A program made the translations under genes and the position numbers. This document shows, piece after piece, positions 1,785 to 10,866 of a stretch of 10,867 nt of DNA. Numbering within the stretch: the first letter of the stretch is position 1; every line of letters starts with the position of its first letter. The notes below the pieces were generated by a model that had not been told where the DNA came from, ran no database searches, and worked only from the letters and a program-made list of their open reading frames with translations. The stretch is from a virus (Duplodnaviria; Heunggongvirae; Uroviricota; Caudoviricetes): the IMG/VR virus record IMGVR_UViG_2541047874_000002, positions 1 through 10,867 of that record. The stretch is one strand, 5' to 3'.

Positions 1785-2861
1785 TTACTCAAATAACTTT
1801 TTCACTTCATCAACTGTCTGAAGATAACGTTCACCCTCAATCTCAATACCGATTGCCTGACGACCTAACTTCAGCGCGGCTTTAATAGTAGAGCCTGATC
1901 CCATAAAGAAATCGGCAACGATATCTCCGGGGCGGGAACTACTTTTTATAATATGTTCCATCATCGCTGCAGGTTTTTCACATGGGTGCTTGCCAGGATA
2001 ATATTGCACAGGAGGAAACTCCCATACATCGGTATAAGGTACATCAGCAGTAACATGAAATGGGCGGCGCAAATTTTCATACTGAGCCTTCAAATCATCA
2101 TACTGCTTCTTTACTTCCTCATAACGCAATTTCAGATCGCTATAACGCTTTTCATGTTCTGAATAATCAACATTAAAAGGATATGGACACGGGACACCGA
2201 GTGAATCTGCCTTCCTGCGAAATAATTCGCATAGTTTATTAAAATCACTTAATGATGGAAGCCGCCACTGCGAATAAGAAAACCAGTGCGAACACATCTG
2301 CTTTCCTGTTGCTGAATTAATGTCTGCGGCTGATATATCTAACTGACGGCGAGCCAGCGAAAAAGCATCAATTAGTGGAGAAAAAATATTTTTTCTTAAA
2401 TCTGCACATTTTGAAGCATAACCTGACTGACCTTTAGCATAACCTGACGCGCCGTAATGCTCTGCAAATAATATTCTTTCAGTGGCAGGAAAATAAGCCC
2501 TTAAACTTTCTTTATGACAACCGCGCCACATACCACTGGGTTTAGCCCAAATGATATGGTTCAGAACATTGAAACGGTCGCGAGTTAATAATTCAATTTT
2601 TGACGCAAGGCGAGAGCCGGTAAACATATACAGGCTGCCATTAGGGGCCAATATCCGCCAAAATTCTGCCAAAAATTCATCAATCCACCCCAAAAAGTCA
2701 GCATCGCTATCCCACTGGTTATCCCATGCGTTAGCCTTTACGCCGAAGTATGGTGGGTCTGTTGCAATCAAATTGACCGAGTTATCAGGGATGGTTTTGA
2801 TAAATTGCAGAGAATCTGCGCAAACGAGTTGCGCGCCATGAATATTAGTGGTTTTGAACAT
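1785..2861 (-). CDS. Beta-class amino-DNA methyltransferase (N6-adenine or N4-cytosine), orphan
   Basis: DPPY catalytic motif near the N-terminus and FxGxG-type AdoMet motif (DFFMGSGST) near the C-terminus. Start ambiguous: ATG at 2861 (MFKTT...) or ATG at 2906; neither has a strong Shine-Dalgarno. No restriction-endonuclease partner seen. Confidence 0.8.
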   Translation of the reverse strand: MFKTTNIHGAQLVCADSLQFIKTIPDNSVNLIATDPPYFGVKANAWDNQWDSDADFLGWIDEFLAEFWRILAPNGSLYMFTGSRLASKIELLTRDRFNVLNHIIWAKPSGMWRGCHKESLRAYFPATERILFAEHYGASGYAKGQSGYASKCADLRKNIFSPLIDAFSLARRQLDISAADINSATGKQMCSHWFSYSQWRLPSLSDFNKLCELFRRKADSLGVPCPYPFNVDYSEHEKRYSDLKLRYEEVKKQYDDLKAQYENLRRPFHVTADVPYTDVWEFPPVQYYPGKHPCEKPAAMMEHIIKSSSRPGDIVADFFMGSGSTIKAALKLGRQAIGIEIEGERYLQTVDEVKKLFE

Positions 2862-2953
2862 AGCTATTATTTTTTTGCCTGGGTAAGCTAACCCGGCGAT
2901 GCGCATCGCGGGTGGGCTTTAGGTTCAGCCTATAGCTCTGGCATGGGTTGACC

Positions 2954-2979
2954 GCAGGACAAGCTGCAACTTGTCCTGC
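2954..2979 (-). promoter_or_regulatory. Stable hairpin (10-bp stems, 6-nt loop) in the methyltransferase leader
   Basis: GCAGGACAAG-CTGCAA-CTTGTCCTGC inverted repeat read directly; not followed by a T-tract on the transcribed strand, so not a simple terminator. Confidence 0.4.
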
Positions 2980-2996
2980 GCCCACTTTTCAGGCAC

Positions 2997-3018
2997 AAAA
3001 AAACCGCCATAAAGGCGG
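2997..3018 (-). terminator. Rho-independent terminator (minus strand), candidate tR'-like late terminator
   Basis: Minus strand reads CCGCC-TTTAT-GGCGG followed by TTTTTTT; sits between the small-gene operon and the methyltransferase/lysis genes. Confidence 0.5.
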
Positions 3019-3057
3019 CTTGTTGGCTGTTGGGTACAAAAAACCCAACTTAACAAA

Positions 3058-3086
3058 ACAATAACTAAAAACCGTAATTTTGCCAA
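3058..3086 (-). promoter_or_regulatory. Candidate sigma70 promoter (minus strand): -35 TTGGCA, 16-17 bp spacer, -10 TATTGT
   Basis: Read on the reverse complement; lies about 40-60 nt upstream of the terminator at 2997-3018, resembling a PR'/tR' arrangement. Pattern match only. Confidence 0.3.
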
Positions 3087-3104
3087 GCTTTTTCGTTTTT
3101 GTGC

Positions 3105-3124
3105 TGTGCGACCGTGGTCGCACA
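3105..3124. repeat. Copy 2 of dispersed near-palindrome (TGTGCGACCGTGGTCGCACA), just downstream of the 3129..3356 gene stop and about 20 bp upstream of the candidate -35
   Basis: Read directly; opposite centre orientation to copy 1 (CCGTGG on plus); followed by AGTTTTT on the plus strand. Confidence 0.9.
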
Positions 3125-3128
3125 GTTT

Positions 3129-3356
3129 TTAGAAAGTTGCCTGCTTATATTCATCGGTCAAAGAATATCGACCAGACCCGCTACGCTTTGCAACCCCAAA
3201 ACAGATCATCTGTTCGATGATAAATTCAACGGCAGCTTGACTCAAAAAACAGGCTTCGCTTAACTCTTTCAGGGAAATGCGTGGGTATCCACGCATAACA
3301 CATTCCACACTCAGGGCCGCTTCAGTCATATTTCCACGAATTTCATTAATATTCAT
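3129..3356 (-). CDS. Hypothetical small protein (75 aa), possible winged-helix fold
   Basis: ORF with GAGAGG Shine-Dalgarno 4 nt upstream of ATG 3356; second gene of a two-gene operon; no family confidently recognised. Confidence 0.5.
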   Translation of the reverse strand: MNINEIRGNMTEAALSVECVMRGYPRISLKELSEACFLSQAAVEFIIEQMICFGVAKRSGSGRYSLTDEYKQATF

Positions 3357-3369
3357 AACGCCTCTCTAA

Positions 3370-3591
3370 TCAATCTTGAAACTGGAAATCAACATCAGCC
3401 ATAAAGCGGTTCAACTCAGCCAGTTTTGGCCCCATAGTCCCAACTAAGCGACCAGCCAGTCGGTCTGCCAGGTTGGTACTGTTGAAACCATATTCCTTTT
3501 CGAAACGTTCAACCTTCTGCCACAACTCATACAGTTCGTTAGCTATCTCCGCAACGTCGTCGCGCATTTTTTCGTTACCTTGATAATTCAT
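3370..3591 (-). CDS. Hypothetical small acidic protein (about 73 aa)
   Basis: Internal ATG at 3591 has a perfect GGAGG Shine-Dalgarno 5-6 nt upstream; the track ORF extends to 3609. No family recognised. Confidence 0.5.
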   Translation of the reverse strand: MNYQGNEKMRDDVAEIANELYELWQKVERFEKEYGFNSTNLADRLAGRLVGTMGPKLAELNRFMADVDFQFQD

Positions 3592-3680
3592 AATATCCTC
3601 CAAATTCATATAGTTAGTGGGTTATTGCCCCTCAATGACACGAACTGTAACTCTGCCAAACGAACACATCCAGTGTTATT

Positions 3681-3698
3681 TTTCACTTTTTAGTGAAA
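3681..3698. promoter_or_regulatory. 18-bp perfect inverted repeat TTTCACT-TTTT-AGTGAAA upstream of higB-like gene (candidate operator)
   Basis: Read directly; lies in the divergent promoter region between the 3591 operon and the toxin-antitoxin operon. Confidence 0.4.
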
Positions 3699-3756
3699 TT
3701 TTTAATTTGCGCTTTTTTCTTGTTTTGGTGTATTTTATGGCTATGGAGGCTATAAT

Positions 3757-4068
3757 ATGTTTAACGTGATAACCCACCCTGCAGCACTGGATGAACTGCT
3801 TGAACTACCAGATGATTTGCGAGGTCGCATGACCAGATTAATTGAGCGACTGGAGAAGGAAGGCAACAAACTGAAGATGCCCCATAGCCGTGTAATAGGT
3901 GGAGGGCTTTTTGAACTACGAGTAGGGGATAAAAACATCGCAAGAACGCTGTACGCCTACGCGACTGGTAACGAAATTTATCTATTGCATGCATTTGTAA
4001 AAAAGACACAGAAAACACCGGTGAAGGCTATCGAAATCGCCAGAACTCGCCTGAAGGAGATGAACTGA
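3757..4068 (+). CDS. higB: Type II toxin, RelE/ParE superfamily, HigB / Gp49-like
   Basis: 103 aa; C-terminal LYAYATGNEIYLLHAFVKKTQKTP motif characteristic of HigB/Gp49-like toxins (recalled); GGAGG Shine-Dalgarno; toxin-first order; stop overlaps the antitoxin start (TGATG). Confidence 0.8.
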   Translation: MFNVITHPAALDELLELPDDLRGRMTRLIERLEKEGNKLKMPHSRVIGGGLFELRVGDKNIARTLYAYATGNEIYLLHAFVKKTQKTPVKAIEIARTRLKEMN

Positions 4069-4355
4069 TGAAAGCAAAAGGCATCCCGTTTAACGAAGTA
4101 AAGGAAAAACTACTCAACACTCCAGAAGCTATCAAAGGATATGAAGAGGCCGATAAAGAACTGGAGATGGTCGAAATGTTATACGAAATGAGGGAAAGAG
4201 CAGGTTTAACGAAGTCAGCTCTGGCAGAACGAATGGGATTGCGCCCGTCCGCCATCAGCCGCCTGGAAAGCAATCCTTTAGGGGCAAGTATGAAAACTTT
4301 ATCAAAATATGCCCAGGCATGTGGCGCAACAATTAATATTAATGCCGTCTATTGA
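4068..4355 (+). CDS. higA: Type II antitoxin, HTH XRE-family (HigA-like)
   Basis: 95 aa with helix-turn-helix segment (LTKSALAERMGLRPSAISRLE); translationally coupled to the upstream toxin. Confidence 0.8.
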   Translation: MKAKGIPFNEVKEKLLNTPEAIKGYEEADKELEMVEMLYEMRERAGLTKSALAERMGLRPSAISRLESNPLGASMKTLSKYAQACGATININAVY

Positions 4356-4372
4356 TTAATCACTTTTCACTA

Positions 4373-4392
4373 CCCCGTCCAGAAGGGCGGGG
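4373..4392 (+). terminator. Hairpin between convergent genes (putative higBA terminator)
   Basis: CCCCGTCC-AGAA-GGGCGGGG, 8-bp stem with one G-U pair, 18 nt after the higA stop; weak U-tract, so termination efficiency is uncertain. Confidence 0.35.
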
Positions 4393-4398
4393 TGTGTA

Positions 4399-4617
4399 TC
4401 AATGATGTAAACACTCAACAGCAATCGCTTGTTGGCAATTCTGAGCAATCTCCCGCGACATACTAACAAGCCGTGAAATCTCGCCAAGATGCAAGCTAGC
4501 TTCGGGAGAAGCCAGAGCAACGTTAACCAGATCCAAAACGGCGTCGATGTCTTTTAGGTTTGATTCGAGTTCTTCAAGAGTTGATACAGATGCTTCAGTC
4601 ATTGAATCTAATACCAT
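4399..4617 (-). CDS. Small acidic helical protein (72 aa), putatively LexA/SOS-regulated; candidate antirepressor
   Basis: ORF begins 25 nt downstream of a near-consensus LexA box; no strong Shine-Dalgarno (alternative ATG at 4602); function inferred from context only. Confidence 0.5.
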   Translation of the reverse strand: MVLDSMTEASVSTLEELESNLKDIDAVLDLVNVALASPEASLHLGEISRLVSMSREIAQNCQQAIAVECLHH

Positions 4618-4659: not shown

Positions 4660-4859
4660 TAAAACTCAAATTTTATAGCCAACTTTCAATGGATTAACTG
4701 GGTTAATAGTTTTGTAGTCAGATATTTATGTTCTCTTCCTACGCCTCACTCAACCACCTACAGAAGCCCATCATCACCATAAGAAAAGCTCTTTTCGCTT
4801 CGTTTGCGTATCATTTCAAAAAGCAATGCCTTTTTATCCATTTATCCCTCCGTGACCAG

Positions 4860-7939: not shown

Positions 7940-8240
7940 TTTCTTGTGCGACCACGGTCGCACCCTCTCTGATTTCCAAGTAACGCTTAATCCAAAGATT
8001 TTCTATATGCTTATTACCTGGCTGATTTGATAAATACCAATCGGCAATTACAGACTGCTTATTACTATCTGGTCGTGTCCTGTAACCACAAGTTGGACAC
8101 CAAATAACATATTCATTTCTTACCCCCGAATACCTTAATTCTGGCTTCGACGGTTTCCTGAACATAACTTGTTTACAAAGGCAGAATGGCACTTCCTGCC
8201 CGATGGCGTTTGATGATTTCACTGCGCTTCTCCGCCGCAT
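7920..8240 (-). CDS. Small zinc-ribbon protein, possibly Lar-family restriction-alleviation-like
   Basis: CxC...CPTCG cysteine pairs (FCLC, CPTCG) about 22 aa apart; ATG at 8240 overlaps the upstream gene by 68 nt, so the start is uncertain (alternative ATG 8165 would lose the first Cys pair). Confidence 0.4.
   Translation of the reverse strand: MRRRSAVKSSNAIGQEVPFCLCKQVMFRKPSKPELRYSGVRNEYVIWCPTCGYRTRPDSNKQSVIADWYLSNQPGNKHIENLWIKRYLEIREGATVVAQENENNAI
7945..7963. repeat. Copy 3 of dispersed near-palindrome (TGTGCGACCACGGTCGCAC), overlapping the 3' end of the Lar-like ORF and 6 nt upstream of the 7939 ATG
   Basis: Read directly; on the coding (minus) strand it is read in frame as A-T-V-V-A-Q. 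Confidence 0.9.
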
Positions 8241-8883
8241 TTAATAATGCGGTTCGATTTAAGCTCAGACATCGCGACTTAATTAAAAGCCAGCGTTCTT
8301 TATAATCTTGTCTCCAGCTATCAATAGATATATTCAGTAGAAAACTCAGATGCCTGTCCTGTTCTCTCTCATCAACTGCCTCAGCACACGTAAGTTCTGA
8401 TTTAACCTGTTGTGCCGCGTAATAAATCAATTTCCGCATGGCTTTTTTCGTGGAGGCCTTCATTTTTTTAAAGCCGCCCCCCGAATGAGCAACCAGAAAA
8501 TCAAGCCATAACCACTGACAAACAATCACATCATTGTTGTAATCAGGCTTGCATCCGTAGCAATAATAAAGCCAGGCTGATTCCTCGTTATTCAACTGAC
8601 CAATAGCCCTGCGCCAGCTGGCGCTCTGAAAATCAATATCAGTGAGCAACATTGATGATTGTTTAAATGTTTTCCCCTGATGGAATCTAACCGGCTCAGC
8701 AGGAACGGACACTTCGTATGAGTTATCATCCCCCACACTGATTGACCGGACTGGTTTATTGTTAAACCGTCCTGATCTACCGAGACGCATCTGCTCAAGC
8801 TGGACCTCCAGAATGCCACGCTGGCGATAATGAACATCAGCCAATGCCGTAGAGACGCAGCTGCGTATATACTCAAGCTCCAC
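8173..8883 (-). CDS. Hypothetical early protein (236 aa from GTG 8883; alternative ATG 8790)
   Basis: Long ORF immediately downstream of the cro-like gene; contains CYGC; function not recognisable by eye (replication or regulatory role possible). Confidence 0.5.
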   Translation of the reverse strand: MELEYIRSCVSTALADVHYRQRGILEVQLEQMRLGRSGRFNNKPVRSISVGDDNSYEVSVPAEPVRFHQGKTFKQSSMLLTDIDFQSASWRRAIGQLNNEESAWLYYCYGCKPDYNNDVIVCQWLWLDFLVAHSGGGFKKMKASTKKAMRKLIYYAAQQVKSELTCAEAVDEREQDRHLSFLLNISIDSWRQDYKERWLLIKSRCLSLNRTALLNAAEKRSEIIKRHRAGSAILPL

Positions 8884-9094: not shown

Positions 9095-9185
9095 GTTGTT
9101 ATTATAAACAATAAACAACAATTAAAGCCAGCTATAATAAATAAATTTTATAGCCAGCTATAAGAAGATCATTTATGATTACAGT
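9095..9185. promoter_or_regulatory. Immunity-region divergent promoter/operator segment
   Basis: Direct repeat of GCCAGCTATAA (9127-9137, 9153-9163); 16-bp near-palindrome TTATAGCCAGCTATAA (9148-9163) and half-related TTAAAGCCAGCTATAA (9122-9137); TTGTT...AACAA repeats at 9096-9120. The CI-like ATG has no Shine-Dalgarno, so a leaderless mRNA is possible. Confidence 0.55.
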
Positions 9186-10026: not shown

Positions 10027-10866
10027 AATGACATTAAACGATTTCTATGCGGATCGCTTTGGCAGCGATCCGTTCTCGCTAATTGAAGCAGCACGGGATG
10101 AACTAACCGAGCTGGCACAGATGGCTGGTATCAACTGGCCTGCCTGTTCCGACAACATCCAACTCAACCCTCGCGGGGGGGTTGAGCGTTACTCTTCATA
10201 CAATAAAACATCTCCAGAAGCTCTCGAAAAGAGCCTGAAAGGACGCGTAGAAATTTACTCCAGGCTGGAACACAGCAAAGGGATTGATTACCCGTTCATT
10301 AACTTCGTCCATAAAGGCAGCGATGCTGGCTCATGGAGCGGTTTCTCCTTCCTGTTTTCTGAATATCGCCGTGAGCAACAACGGAATAATGCGACCGTGG
10401 TCGCACAACCGGAAGAAGAACGGGAAAGAATAGAACGTCAGGCCGAAGCACGTCGTCGCCGTGAAGAACAAAAACGAATTAATGACCTGAAAAACAACCA
10501 AATGGACCATGAACGTTTGCTGGGATGGCTGGCATTCCACAGCGCGTGGGAACATGCTCAGGCTGAAGACGGCTCATGGCCATATGCGATTAAAAAAGGT
10601 ATTCGTGACGTTTTTAGTTCATGTGATGTGCGTCGCGTGACCAGTCACGACAGTGCGAAATGGAGCCGGGGGCCAACCACATATATGGCTATCCCTCTGG
10701 CTCACCTGGACGGTCGTTATGATGGTCGTATTGTGGGTTGGCAGCGAATCGACAAACAAGGTGGGAAATACCAGACCAGCGCAGTAACCAGCGGCGATTT
10801 CGTCGGTGCCTGCTTTGTTATCGGTGAGCTGAAAGGGGCGCAAAACATCGCTGTTACAGAAGGTTT
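10027..10866 (+). CDS. Primase-like replication protein, N-terminal part (truncated by window end)
   Basis: Frame open from ATG 10027 to the window end (280 codons, verified codon by codon); charged linker EEERERIERQAEARRRREEQKR; ends in IAVTEGF, resembling the start of a TOPRIM acidic motif. Not in the ORF track because it has no stop. Confidence 0.5.
10390..10407. repeat. Copy 4 of dispersed near-palindrome (TGCGACCGTGGTCGCACA) inside the primase-like coding sequence
   Basis: Read directly; encodes A-T-V-V-A-Q in the plus frame, just before the charged linker. Confidence 0.9.

Follow-up and report, generated by a model that had tools for sequence, protein, structure and literature searches.

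The window, by which we mean the whole 10,867-nt stretch of DNA that was analysed, is, judged by its sequence, an N15-type (Ravinvirus) linear phage-plasmid rather than a classical lambdoid prophage. The Escherichia phages YDC107_1 and PhiR46_1 match it at this locus with 100% identity, and all 16 of its E. coli matches are plasmid-borne. Two small genes lie on its minus strand, with a 13-nt gap between them (3357-3369), and the features in and around them are as follows:

1785-2861, minus strand: gp52 DNA methylase (PF01555; Pfam N6_N4_Mtase, E 1.3e-46), with its start at 2861 as in the YDC107_1 annotation
2992-3021, minus strand: intrinsic terminator of the late leader (8-bp stem and T-run; terminator scan)
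3058-3086, minus strand: late promoter of the methylase/lysis operon (-35 TTGGCA at 3086, 17 nt, -10 TATTGT at 3058; consensus scan)
3105-3124, no strand: SopB-type centromere palindrome TGTGCGACCGTGGTCGCACA, 20 bp, orthologue of N15 IR3, 4 nt past the gp51 stop
3129-3356, minus strand: gene 51 homologue, 75 aa (pI 5.3), predicted stand-alone winged helix-turn-helix (ATG 3356, stop 3129-3131)
3361-3366, minus strand: Shine-Dalgarno GAGAGG, 4 nt ahead of ATG 3356, read from the sequence
3370-3591, minus strand: gene 50 homologue, 73 aa, acidic (pI 4.6), assigned by sequence to the YubE family, predicted antiparallel two-helix hairpin
3592-3609, minus strand: leader with an in-frame upstream ATG (3609) which is not the start codon
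3597-3601, minus strand: Shine-Dalgarno GGAGG, 5 nt ahead of ATG 3591, read from the sequence
3631-3653, minus strand: invariant 23-bp element GAGTTACAGTTCGTGTCATTGAG, with a -10-like TACAGT (3649-3644); inferred promoter/operator
3654-3677, minus strand: 5′ (left) edge of the cassette, an A-rich stretch with conserved ACTGGATGTG (ACTGGA 3674-3669) and a variable spacer of ~10 nt
3681-3698, no strand: palindrome TTTCACT-N4-AGTGAAA between the divergent genes, part of the higBA cassette
3757-4355, plus strand: type II toxin-antitoxin pair (HigB/Gp49-like toxin 3757-4068, HTH antitoxin 4068-4355)

As the window is N15-like and at this locus identical to deposited Escherichia phages, its small genes are those known in N15 as genes 50 and 51. 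The pair is 100% identical to the proteins annotated 'putative gp50/gp51' in YDC107_1, while the N15 proteins are 81% (gp50) and 75% (gp51) identical to those of the window by tblastn, and the phiKO2 proteins 70% and 69%. The order higBA, 50, 51, IR3, late promoter, terminator, methylase is that of N15, as read from the annotated N15 and phiKO2 regions and from DNA alignment, and both window proteins are orthologues of N15 gp50 and gp51. Both genes are under strong purifying selection (Nei-Gojobori dN/dS 0.04-0.09 where dS is unsaturated); this low dN/dS, the matches of gp50 to phrog_4830 (E 3.6e-40) and of gp51 to phrog_331 (E 3e-32), and homologues in the 74 loci of our comparison set (30 gp51 variants) place the gene pair beyond chance. 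The initial annotation is thus upheld in its description of two small genes with good ribosome sites, 13 nt apart and without recognisable function, and neither protein is a confident homologue of the ordinary structural or regulatory proteins of lambdoid phages, a finding that this annotation had named as counting against it. The position of the pair, with the early genes on one side and the lysis module on the other, was also correctly seen, the lambdoid prophage around it was not, and the pair is no strain-specific moron, as it occurs in every N15-like locus examined, with PY54 retaining gene 51 only. N15 gp50/gp51, PHROGs 4830 and 331 and Pfam YubE are all catalogued already, so no new kind of element is at hand.

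The upstream boundary of the pair does need revision. An ORF of 79 aa opens at ATG 3609, and the initial annotation ran the pair from 3129 to 3609; its downstream gene stands, whereas the upstream gene starts at ATG 3591. The GGAGG (3601-3597), kept as GGAG among homologous loci, is internal to the 79-aa ORF; positions 1-73 of the phrog_4830 profile align to residues 7-79 of that ORF, beginning at its second Met; an in-frame TAA follows the upstream ATG, before the true ATG, in N15 and in locus L041; and in phiKO2 an in-frame TAG stands just ahead of the upstream ATG. From the internal GGAGG, the start of the PHROG profile and the in-frame stops we conclude that the gene 50 product is of 73 aa (3591-3370), and the stops in N15, L041 and phiKO2 close the longer upstream extension that has been called in some homologues.

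AlphaFold2 (AF2) predicts gp50 to be two helices (residues 3-34 and 41-72; pLDDT 72). Pfam, NCBIfam and PADLOC family searches returned nothing for it, nor did a profile search of solved structures, and the fold search gave helical hairpins only, at non-significant E above 0.3. An exhaustive HMMER search with the gp50 profile reached 40 cluster representatives, nearly all of them short (~35-110 aa), with no informative domain fusion.

For gp51 the AF2 model is far more confident (pLDDT 94) and has H-H-H-H-wing topology; Foldseek matches it to MarR/IclR-type DNA-binding domains (TM 0.73-0.81, probability 1.0), which is a winged helix-turn-helix (wHTH) fold, and the gp51 profile aligns with the IclR-type wHTH of 2o0y at E 0.044, the G.YsL wing motif included. 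The protein scores below the curated Pfam wHTH cut-offs (HTH_24 17.7 versus 21.9 bits, PCI 21.1 versus 22, HTH_AsnC 14.9 versus 27), and an NCBIfam search gave no match. At 75 aa it is a wHTH alone, with neither a dimerisation nor an effector domain. On its modelled structure, then, gp51 is a stand-alone MarR/IclR-type winged-helix domain and a putative DNA binder. Membership of the PapI/PefI (FaeA) group was considered and dropped (PefI (2jt1) profile E 0.46, no Pfam FaeA match), the fold search leading to a generic winged helix. The protein is slightly acidic and has a hydrophobic/acidic recognition helix, an unusual trait in a DNA binder.

That the pair is divergent from higBA is borne out by Pfam, which identifies the neighbour as a HigB(Gp49)/HigA pair (Gp49 E 2.5e-29, HTH_3 E 1.6e-12). 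Wherever the flank is long enough, a divergent toxin-antitoxin (TA) locus adjoins the cassette, and it is of one of two types, higBA and hicAB, which swap with each other. This swap defines the left edge of the cassette: when higBA-linked and hicAB-linked loci are aligned, similarity starts exactly at the edge at 3654-3677. Genes 50-51 together make up a bicistronic cassette, ~560 bp long, that includes a conserved 5′ region of its own.

The palindrome TTTCACT-N4-AGTGAAA occurs in most higBA-linked loci (being replaced or degenerate in L009, L069 and L013), and unrelated sequence takes its place in hicAB-linked loci with near-identical genes 50-51. We therefore rejected it as an operator for gp51, as it travels with higBA and is gone from hicAB-linked cassettes. 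The N15 annotation calls its counterpart a putative stem-loop only.

The same comparison bears on whether genes 50-51 could be an addiction pair of toxin-antitoxin type in their own right, or extra parts of the neighbouring TA locus (for example a regulator and a modulator of HigBA/HicAB). Two close genes of ~75 codons, one product with a DNA-binding-type fold and the other acidic, with a TA locus invariably adjoining, would suit such a pair; but exchange of the TA for one of an unrelated family leaves genes 50-51 and their control region unchanged, and there is no similarity to toxin families. Nor are gp50 and gp51 an obligate pair, since PY54 lacks gp50 and more than 5000 YubE plasmids lack gp51, so that neither the obligate co-occurrence nor the toxin fold of a type II TA was found. 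We consider this explanation very improbable.

Within the 5′ region, the 23-bp element is unique in the window (0 expected by chance) and is kept in cassettes with protein identities of 31-80%, among them that of PY54, where gene 50 is absent. Searching IMG/VR for the 23-mer with at most 3 mismatches gave 43 loci, of which 40 have gp50/gp51, one is end-truncated and two are chance matches inside genes; a scan with a 14-mer gave mostly chance matches and was useful only once extended to the 23-mer. In-frame stops in the window, N15 and phiKO2 make the element non-coding, and such stops also led us to reject the reading of the conserved 5′ block as coding for an N-terminal extension (it appears as 'MRVTVRVVERG...' in some database entries). 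No stable RNA structure was detected for the element (fold z -0.22; no pairs by RNAalifold), and a covarying leader hairpin proposed by eye was dropped on the same two results.

The edge at 3654-3677 may hold a weak -35 region, set 18-19 nt ahead of the TACAGT inside the element. The consensus promoter scan made no call on this putative promoter of genes 50-51; no CB-type prophage-repressor operator was found in the control region, and a by-eye check for LexA box, sigma-54 and sigma-32 patterns gave unfit spacings. As the gp51 of PY54 is only 31% identical and its element almost unchanged, the element may serve a host factor or RNA polymerase and not gp51.

Downstream of gene 51, TGTGCGACCGTGGTCGCACA is one of four copies within the window and aligns to the N15 sequence which is equal to the IR3 oligonucleotide, a SopB-binding site (PMC7205306, Table 4); the phiKO2 counterpart is annotated as a 'putative plasmid partitioning site'. 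The late promoter aligns with the annotated N15 -35/-10 and with the phiKO2 'putative late promoter'; the terminator, conserved and annotated in both N15 and phiKO2, was the sole terminator-like site found (3021-3001), and gp52 is the first gene past the late leader. Because it is positioned downstream of the promoter-like site, the terminator is that of the late-operon leader and is not dedicated to genes 50-51. Of the two boundaries first proposed for the pair, palindrome copy 2 is the IR3 orthologue, and the terminator is the one that comes after the late promoter. The terminator is presumed to be the target of a Q-like antiterminator, a role that we infer from the Q-family gene at 8173-8883, and it probably also ends any read-through from genes 50-51.

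This arrangement suggests one further explanation: gp51, modulated by gp50, might act at or near IR3 and the late promoter to tune SopB silencing or Q-dependent late transcription, and so link partition to lytic development. The late gene expression of N15 is reportedly facilitated by its Sop proteins (Ravin, Rech and Lane 2008). Position is indeed fixed: in nearly all N15-like loci a SopB-type palindrome lies 5-6 nt past the gp51 stop (20 nt in PY54), with the late promoter, the terminator and then the methylase beyond it; lineages differ in their palindrome type (TGCGACC.., TGGGACC.. or GGGGCC..) while the arrangement stays constant; and PY54 retains gp51 despite its loss of gp50. Common descent among N15-like phages can, however, explain the fixed spacing, and the 23-bp element has no second copy anywhere in the window, the surroundings of the late promoter included.

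The cassette is also found outside this setting. An integrated P2-like Salmonella prophage carries the same cassette at the prophage end, beside host genes, with a GC-rich stem-loop of its own (seen by eye, outside the terminator scan) and no adjoining SopB site or methylase; in another P2-like element it adjoins ParA-type genes. These occurrences without an adjoining SopB palindrome, late promoter or methylase speak against a part in the late switch, which we regard as unlikely, and from them we take the cassette to be probably an autonomous accessory module and not a late-gene regulator. Autonomy is also favoured by the TA swap that sets the left edge, by the lack of a CB-operator-like site in the control region, and by the 23-bp element, which is specific to the cassette and persists in PY54 with gp51 alone. 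Each gene of the pair is also seen singly, gp50 on conjugative plasmids and gp51 in PY54. Clinical Klebsiella and E. coli phage-plasmids commonly carry this cassette.

Such a module might instead be cargo for defence or superinfection exclusion, with the pair, by itself or jointly with the TA genes, shielding the lysogen from other phages or plasmids. The ever-adjoining type II TA, the location next to host genes at the end of a P2-like prophage, as is typical of cargo, and a control region of its own without a site resembling a prophage-repressor operator are what one would expect of cargo. Against this, no PADLOC defence-system model has a family matching gp50 or gp51 (E up to 5), no enzymatic or effector-like domain is present in gp50 or gp51, and the pair is kept in essentially all N15-like genomes, unlike variable defence cargo. 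The YubE family to which gp50 is assigned is, moreover, concentrated in plasmid leading regions, which are enriched for counter-defence rather than defence genes; overall we find this explanation, too, improbable.

By sequence, gp50 is assigned to the YubE family (PF27407). A precomputed PF27407 match is present on 28 of 28 close homologues (70-99% identical) of the window protein, and NCBI names one copy 'YubE family protein'. Over its full length (73/73 aa) gp50 shares 34% identity with the IncF protein encoded at the yubE position (E 2e-14, pairwise), and it is 43% identical to the plasmid F protein over 46 aa (E 3e-12). YubE matched more than 5000 plasmid records, 3579 of them conjugative. 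In the leading region of IncF plasmids and F, the stop codon of a PF01555 methylase is where the YubE gene begins; this usual context, which is no formal criterion of YubE membership, is not that of the window, where gp50, under a 5′ region of its own, is followed by gp51 and the methylase comes ~270 nt past gp51, behind the late promoter. The adjacency of gp50 and a methylase is likewise absent from the P2-like contexts. The window gp52 is nevertheless of the same Pfam family as the methylase preceding YubE in IncF, with 52% identity over a C-terminal motif. For gp51 the distribution is narrow, with telomere phage-plasmids as nearly its sole home: it was found on 215 plasmids only, almost all phage-plasmid-sized and non-mobilisable, while thousands of YubE plasmids are without it, and it is unrelated to the genes after plasmid YubE (DUF1380 and a 256-aa protein).

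The F operon encoding a homologue of M.EcoGIX is induced in transconjugants (PMC12672017), M.EcoGIX protects entering DNA (PMC7736820), and methylases, TA genes and anti-defence genes are over-represented in plasmid leading regions (PMC11541004). We found no functional study of YubE or of N15 genes 50/51 in a literature search whose scope did not extend to the main N15 and phiKO2 papers. In a Klebsiella telomere-phage lysogen nine phage proteins were detected and gp50/gp51 homologues were not among them, although small proteins are easily missed (PMC12042878).

Considering these observations together, we tentatively favour, at somewhat less than even confidence, the possibility that genes 50-51 are an autonomous module of the plasmid lifestyle, with gp51 as autoregulator and gp50 as an establishment or anti-defence factor. 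The cassette would then stand outside the N15 late switch as an accessory module. A weak promoter, with its -10 TACAGT inside the 23-bp element and a start near 3637-3640, would drive it; gp51 would most probably bind the element and so autoregulate the cassette; and gp50 would make protein-protein contacts with a target, of the host or of the element, while the element becomes established in a new cell. This part for gp50 is suggested by its relatives, which lie directly after a homologue of a single-strand-specific methylase in an entry-induced operon of F-type leading regions. Transcripts running beyond gp51 would cross the SopB site and end at the terminator of the late leader. As each of gp50 and gp51 occurs alone, the two need not act together. 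The moron, defence or anti-defence function suggested in the initial annotation is possible but unproven: no PADLOC model matches, yet the gp50 family is typical of plasmid leading regions, themselves enriched in anti-defence genes.

More broadly, YubE might be a hitherto unrecognised establishment/counter-defence factor of leading regions and telomere phage-plasmids alike, packaged in the latter with a gp51 autoregulator and a swappable TA locus into a mobile cassette under the control of the 23-bp element; this wider proposal we hold to be rather doubtful. A bolder variant would have gp51 also read the adjacent SopB centromere, coupling partition status to late transcription.

Few uncharacterised genes of enterobacterial conjugative plasmids are as widespread as YubE, which is here tied to a genetically tractable phage-plasmid, in which the TA-swap comparison delimits a 560-bp cassette and an invariant control element. 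If YubE is an establishment or anti-defence factor, this would bear on how plasmids and phage-plasmids settle in new hosts.

Compared with known systems, genes 50-51 of N15 and phiKO2 encode orthologous proteins with the same strand arrangement and neighbours as in the window; nothing of substance differs, and the window version is a sequence variant already deposited (YDC107_1, PhiR46_1). PY54, in contrast, has gene 51 only (ORF59), with gene 50 absent and hicAB in place of higBA. The fold of gp51 is common to the IclR-family 2o0y and the MarR-family 3e6m and 6pcp, but gp51 lacks the dimerisation helices or effector domain of those regulators and is slightly acidic. PapI/PefI (2jt1) and the pNOB8 centromere-binding protein (4rs8), of 77-84 aa, are near it in size and fold; their likeness to gp51 is weak and non-significant (sequence E 0.46 or fold TM 0.69), and hundreds of other winged-helix proteins match it as well as these do.

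The YubE proteins of F and IncF plasmids, like gp50, are of 73 aa and carry the N-terminal motif MNYxGxEKxRxDVAExAN, and in YubE plasmids and the window alike a PF01555 DNA methylase is found within a few kb, as is a Sop-type partition element. In the plasmids, however, the methylase is upstream and DUF1380 and ArdA-type genes come next, whereas in the window the winged-helix gp51 comes next and the methylase is downstream of genes 50-51. With lambdoid morons the cassette shares its small genes, its own control region, its slot between early and late/lysis modules and its mobility between phage types; unlike them it lies upstream of the late promoter, and is near-universal in N15-like genomes rather than sporadic.

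Two minus-strand ORFs lie side by side at 3370-3609 (79 aa) and 3129-3356 (75 aa), and the initial annotation was right to describe two adjacent small genes with GGAGG and GAGAGG ribosome sites, 13 nt apart. Both are under strong purifying selection against their N15-group homologues, with dN/dS of 0.04-0.09 where dS was estimable, synonymous sites being saturated in the remaining comparisons. The two starts were read as follows:

3601-3597, minus strand: ribosome site GGAGG of gp50, between two in-frame ATGs, 5 nt 5′ of ATG 3591
3366-3361, minus strand: ribosome site GAGAGG of gp51, 4 nt 5′ of ATG 3356

The position of the GGAGG, the alignment of the 73-position gp50-family PHROG profile to residues 7-79 of the 79-aa ORF, and an in-frame TAA after the upstream ATG in N15 and in homologous locus L041 together place the gp50 start at 3591, giving a product of 73 aa (3591-3370).

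The element carrying the pair is an N15-type linear phage-plasmid rather than an integrated lambdoid prophage, so that the lambdoid framing of the initial annotation has to be corrected. Positions 2900-3800 match two Escherichia phages, PhiR46_1 and YDC107_1 (the latter of genus Ravinvirus), at 100% identity and the Klebsiella phage phiKO2 at 75%, and in complete E. coli genomes they were matched 16 times, in 16/16 cases on plasmids of about 36-75 kb. The window encodes a CI-like repressor, cro, a Q-family antiterminator and an exonuclease, together with a Gp49/HTH toxin-antitoxin (TA) pair, a PF01555 methylase and lysis genes. Repeats resembling TATAGCCAGCTATA occur in the cB-cro intergenic region (9123-9162), and a weaker copy (4674-4687) lies upstream of a 72-aa gene (4399-4617; phrog_6301, weakly similar to an anti-repressor). 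The prophage repressor probably uses these repeats as operators, one of which would precede an anti-repressor-like gene. A GC-rich 8-bp hairpin, CCCCGTCC/GGGCGGGG, with no U-run on either strand, occupies 4368-4393, where 43 nt separate the higA ORF from the convergent gene-47-like ORF.

Annotated records name the pair ‘putative gp50’ and ‘putative gp51’, its counterparts being N15 genes 50 and 51 and phiKO2 gp50/gp51. Since the exact sequence is deposited and named and both proteins belong to existing families, the pair counts as a known object; its genes are real, catalogued and conserved, and the known systems nearest to them are N15 gp50/gp51, plasmid F YubE and winged-helix domains of the MarR/IclR type. 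Three points are modestly new: N15 gp50 is linked to plasmid YubE, a TA swap reveals where the cassette begins and ends, and an invariant element is specific to the cassette.

Gp50 has no match in local copies of Pfam, NCBIfam or PADLOC. A precomputed match to PF27407, named YubE in gene tables, is present on 28/28 of the gp50 homologues listed (70-99% identity), and the NCBI name of one copy is ‘YubE family protein’. By tblastn, gp50 matched >5000 plasmids, of which 3579 are conjugative. In F and two IncF plasmids, the 73-aa yubE gene begins where a 227-aa PF01555 DNA methylase ends, at its stop codon; next come a DUF1380 gene, a further unknown gene and an antirestriction gene of the ArdA type. 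Gp50 is 34% identical to an IncF copy over its whole length (E 2e-14) and 43% identical to the F protein over 46 residues. Gp50 is acidic (pI 4.6) and its AlphaFold2 model is an antiparallel two-helix hairpin (pLDDT 72), for which a fold search returned no significant structural neighbour. An exhaustive profile search gave no more than 40 cluster representatives; almost all are short proteins of about 35-110 aa, and none is fused to an informative domain.

Gp51 is predicted to fold as a winged helix-turn-helix (pLDDT 94), which superposes on MarR- and IclR-type DNA-binding domains with TM 0.73-0.81. Its profile matches an IclR-type regulator at E 0.044, including the wing motif G-x-Y-S-L; it stays below Pfam cut-offs and has no dimerisation or effector domain. 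Only 215 plasmid records carry gp51, 211/215 of them non-mobilisable and mostly of 45-57 kb, and these are phage-plasmids; in the phage collection gp51 is confined to telomere phages (N15, phiKO2, PY54 and relatives).

Where near-identical genes 50-51 have different TA neighbours, similarity begins abruptly at AAGACTGGATGTG. Two features lie near this boundary:

3681-3698: AT-rich palindrome TTTCACT-N4-AGTGAAA, outside the cassette similarity
3653-3631, minus strand: invariant element GAGTTACAGTTCGTGTCRTTGAG, 3′ of a variable 10-nt spacer

Because cassette similarity begins only at AAGACTGGATGTG, the AT-rich palindrome is assigned to higBA and not to genes 50-51, presumably as the higBA operator. 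The 23-bp element is unique in the window, nearly invariant across cassettes whose proteins are 31-55% identical, and kept in PY54; in IMG/VR it occurs only 5′ of gp50/gp51, barring two chance intragenic matches and one cut locus. The element is not coding, since N15, phiKO2 and the window all have stops in frame, and it forms no significant RNA structure. Within it, 18-19 nt 3′ of a conserved ACTGGA, lies a -10-like TACAGT, which reads CTACAGT/CTAAAGT in some lineages, and we infer that a weak promoter overlaps a protein-binding site here. A consensus promoter scan made no call in this region, and the genes 50-51 control region has no sites like the CB-type repeats of the cB-cro region.

Downstream of gp51, and for the palindrome also elsewhere in the window, the following were found:

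4 nt past the gp51 stop: start of 20-bp palindrome TGTGCGACCGTGGTCGCACA, one of four window copies
67-84, 3107-3124, 7947-7964 and 10390-10407: the SopB-type palindrome TGCGACC(N2)GGTCGCA, its four copies being dispersed over the window
3086 (-35 TTGGCA) and 3058 (-10 TATTGT), minus strand: promoter-like site, from a scan
3021-3001, minus strand: terminator, from a scan, 3′ of the promoter-like site

TGTGCGACCGTGGTCGCACA aligns with N15 sequence TCGTGCGACCATGGTCGCACGGAATAGAAA, the IR3 oligonucleotide of the N15 centromere construction from Lane’s laboratory (PMC7205306, Table 4), and the equivalent phiKO2 palindrome is annotated as a putative partitioning site. Thus the palindrome said to bound the operon (‘palindrome copy 2’) is indeed present, and by these matches it is identified as a SopB-binding centromere site (IR3). 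Four IR centromere sites are described in N15 (PMC7205306), in agreement with the copy number here, and the whole N15-type set appears to lie inside the window. On the plus strand the 3105-3124 palindrome is followed by GTTTTT and could also terminate antisense transcription.

The promoter-like site and terminator are annotated in N15 and phiKO2 as late promoter and terminator, and a 130-nt leader and the methylase gene follow. As the palindrome lacks a U-run on the gp51 transcript strand, transcripts of genes 50-51 would end at the late-leader terminator; this terminator is not private to the two-gene operon, and the terminator assignment of the initial annotation has to be corrected. The leader itself (2862-2999, minus strand, core about 2912-2985), from late terminator to methylase start, is highly conserved among the window, N15, phiKO2, PY54 and other loci. 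Its consensus RNA structure has a long-range helix (GUGGGC/GCCCAC) around a hairpin with compensatory changes, 8/21 predicted pairs being preserved where both partners have changed; nothing in Rfam reached threshold, and the stretch may serve the late operon or methylase as a regulatory leader.

Our comparison covered 74 loci with 30 distinct gp51 proteins. A YubE homologue lies 5′ of gp51 in every locus with enough flank except PY54, which has no gp50 homologue and too little room for one. All loci with enough flank also have a type II TA in divergent orientation, of the higBA or the hicAB kind. In N15-like genomes a SopB-type palindrome begins 5-6 nt past the gp51 stop (20 nt in PY54), with a PF01555 methylase about 220-280 nt further 3′. 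The palindrome varies by lineage: TGCGACC.., F-like TGGGACC..GGTCCCA (L009, L072, PY54) or GGGGCC.. (L074, GTGGGGCCATGGCCCCAC, unlike the window type), which suggests at least three centromere specificities at one position. In some Klebsiella-type phage-plasmids (L052 and L056) two tandem SopB palindromes, in place of one, lie within the first 110 nt past the gp51 stop.

The gp50-gp51 gap is 41-51 nt in divergent cassettes (L006, L009, L069, L072, L074) and 9-14 nt, with no hairpin, in N15-like phages. In the two divergent loci read, L006 (4957-5000) and L009 (4954-5000), it holds a GC-rich hairpin that may be a processing or attenuation site. At L068 (1616-2577) a hicAB-linked cassette has a higA remnant further upstream, which looks like a scar of TA exchange. 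In Klebsiella phage Kpn74 (L005, 2750-3250) frameshifts break both genes into several short ORFs, as either sequencing errors or genuine pseudogenes. Several IMG/VR viral contigs carry the cassette twice in inverted orientation, as expected if assembly crosses the hairpin telomere of a telomere phage or captures its head-to-head replicative dimer:

3300045988_113976 (L021/L026)
2609459977_000002 (L058/L061)
2703718687_000004 (L048/L049)
2791355284_000001 (L038/L039)
2667527966_000002 (L057/L065)

Three loci depart from the TA-50-51-palindrome-methylase pattern. In an integrated P2-like Salmonella prophage, hicAB, yubE and gp51 follow tail gene D and close the prophage, with a GC-rich stem-loop of its own (read by eye) and neither SopB site nor methylase adjoining; another P2-like element has higBA, yubE and gp51 beside convergent ParA-type partition genes. 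These contexts indicate that the cassette is mobile and independent of the N15 late region. They also speak against a role in the late switch, as suggested by the fixed position beside IR3 and the late promoter and by a Sop effect on N15 late expression that Ravin et al. reportedly described in 2008.

We propose that the cassette would be an autonomous accessory module of plasmid-like elements. Gp51, which alone among its proteins is of DNA-binding type and alone persists in PY54, probably autoregulates it by binding GAGTTACAGTTCGTGTCRTTGAG. Weak points are its slight acidity (pI 5.3), set against the proposed DNA binding, and the lack of correlation between gp51 and 23-bp element divergence. 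Gp50 would probably contact other proteins while the element establishes itself in a new host, a role read from its associations alone. Those associations are shown by the analysis, as are gene identity, family membership, folds and cassette boundaries. The independent occurrence of gp50 and gp51 is a further weak point; because their co-occurrence is not obligate, it also contradicts a TA-like pair. A defence function fits the cargo-like position but is matched by no PADLOC model, and the earlier ‘accessory, possibly anti-defence’ reading may be right. Two more weak points of the proposal are that a literature search found no functional study of YubE or N15 genes 50/51, and that neither protein was among nine phage proteins seen in a lysogen of a Klebsiella telomere phage (PMC12042878).

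About 5 kb of plasmid F (L195, 49789-55071) holds yubE together with a PF01555 methylase and the partition locus sopAB-sopC. In the window the yubE homologue, a Sop centromere site and a PF01555 methylase fit into 2 kb (1785-3609), in a different order, and this clustering may be left over from a common ancestor of the two Sop-bearing elements. The role proposed for gp50 is read from plasmid biology: in leading regions orphan methylases and TA genes are over-represented, as are anti-defence and uncharacterised small genes (PMC11541004); M.EcoGIX, a single-strand-specific methylase, protects entering plasmid DNA (PMC7736820), and the F operon with an M.EcoGIX-type homologue is induced in fresh transconjugants (PMC12672017). 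The N15 slot shares the same ingredients with these leading regions, namely TA, YubE and a PF01555 methylase, the latter being 52% identical to the plasmid enzyme over the C-terminal motif.
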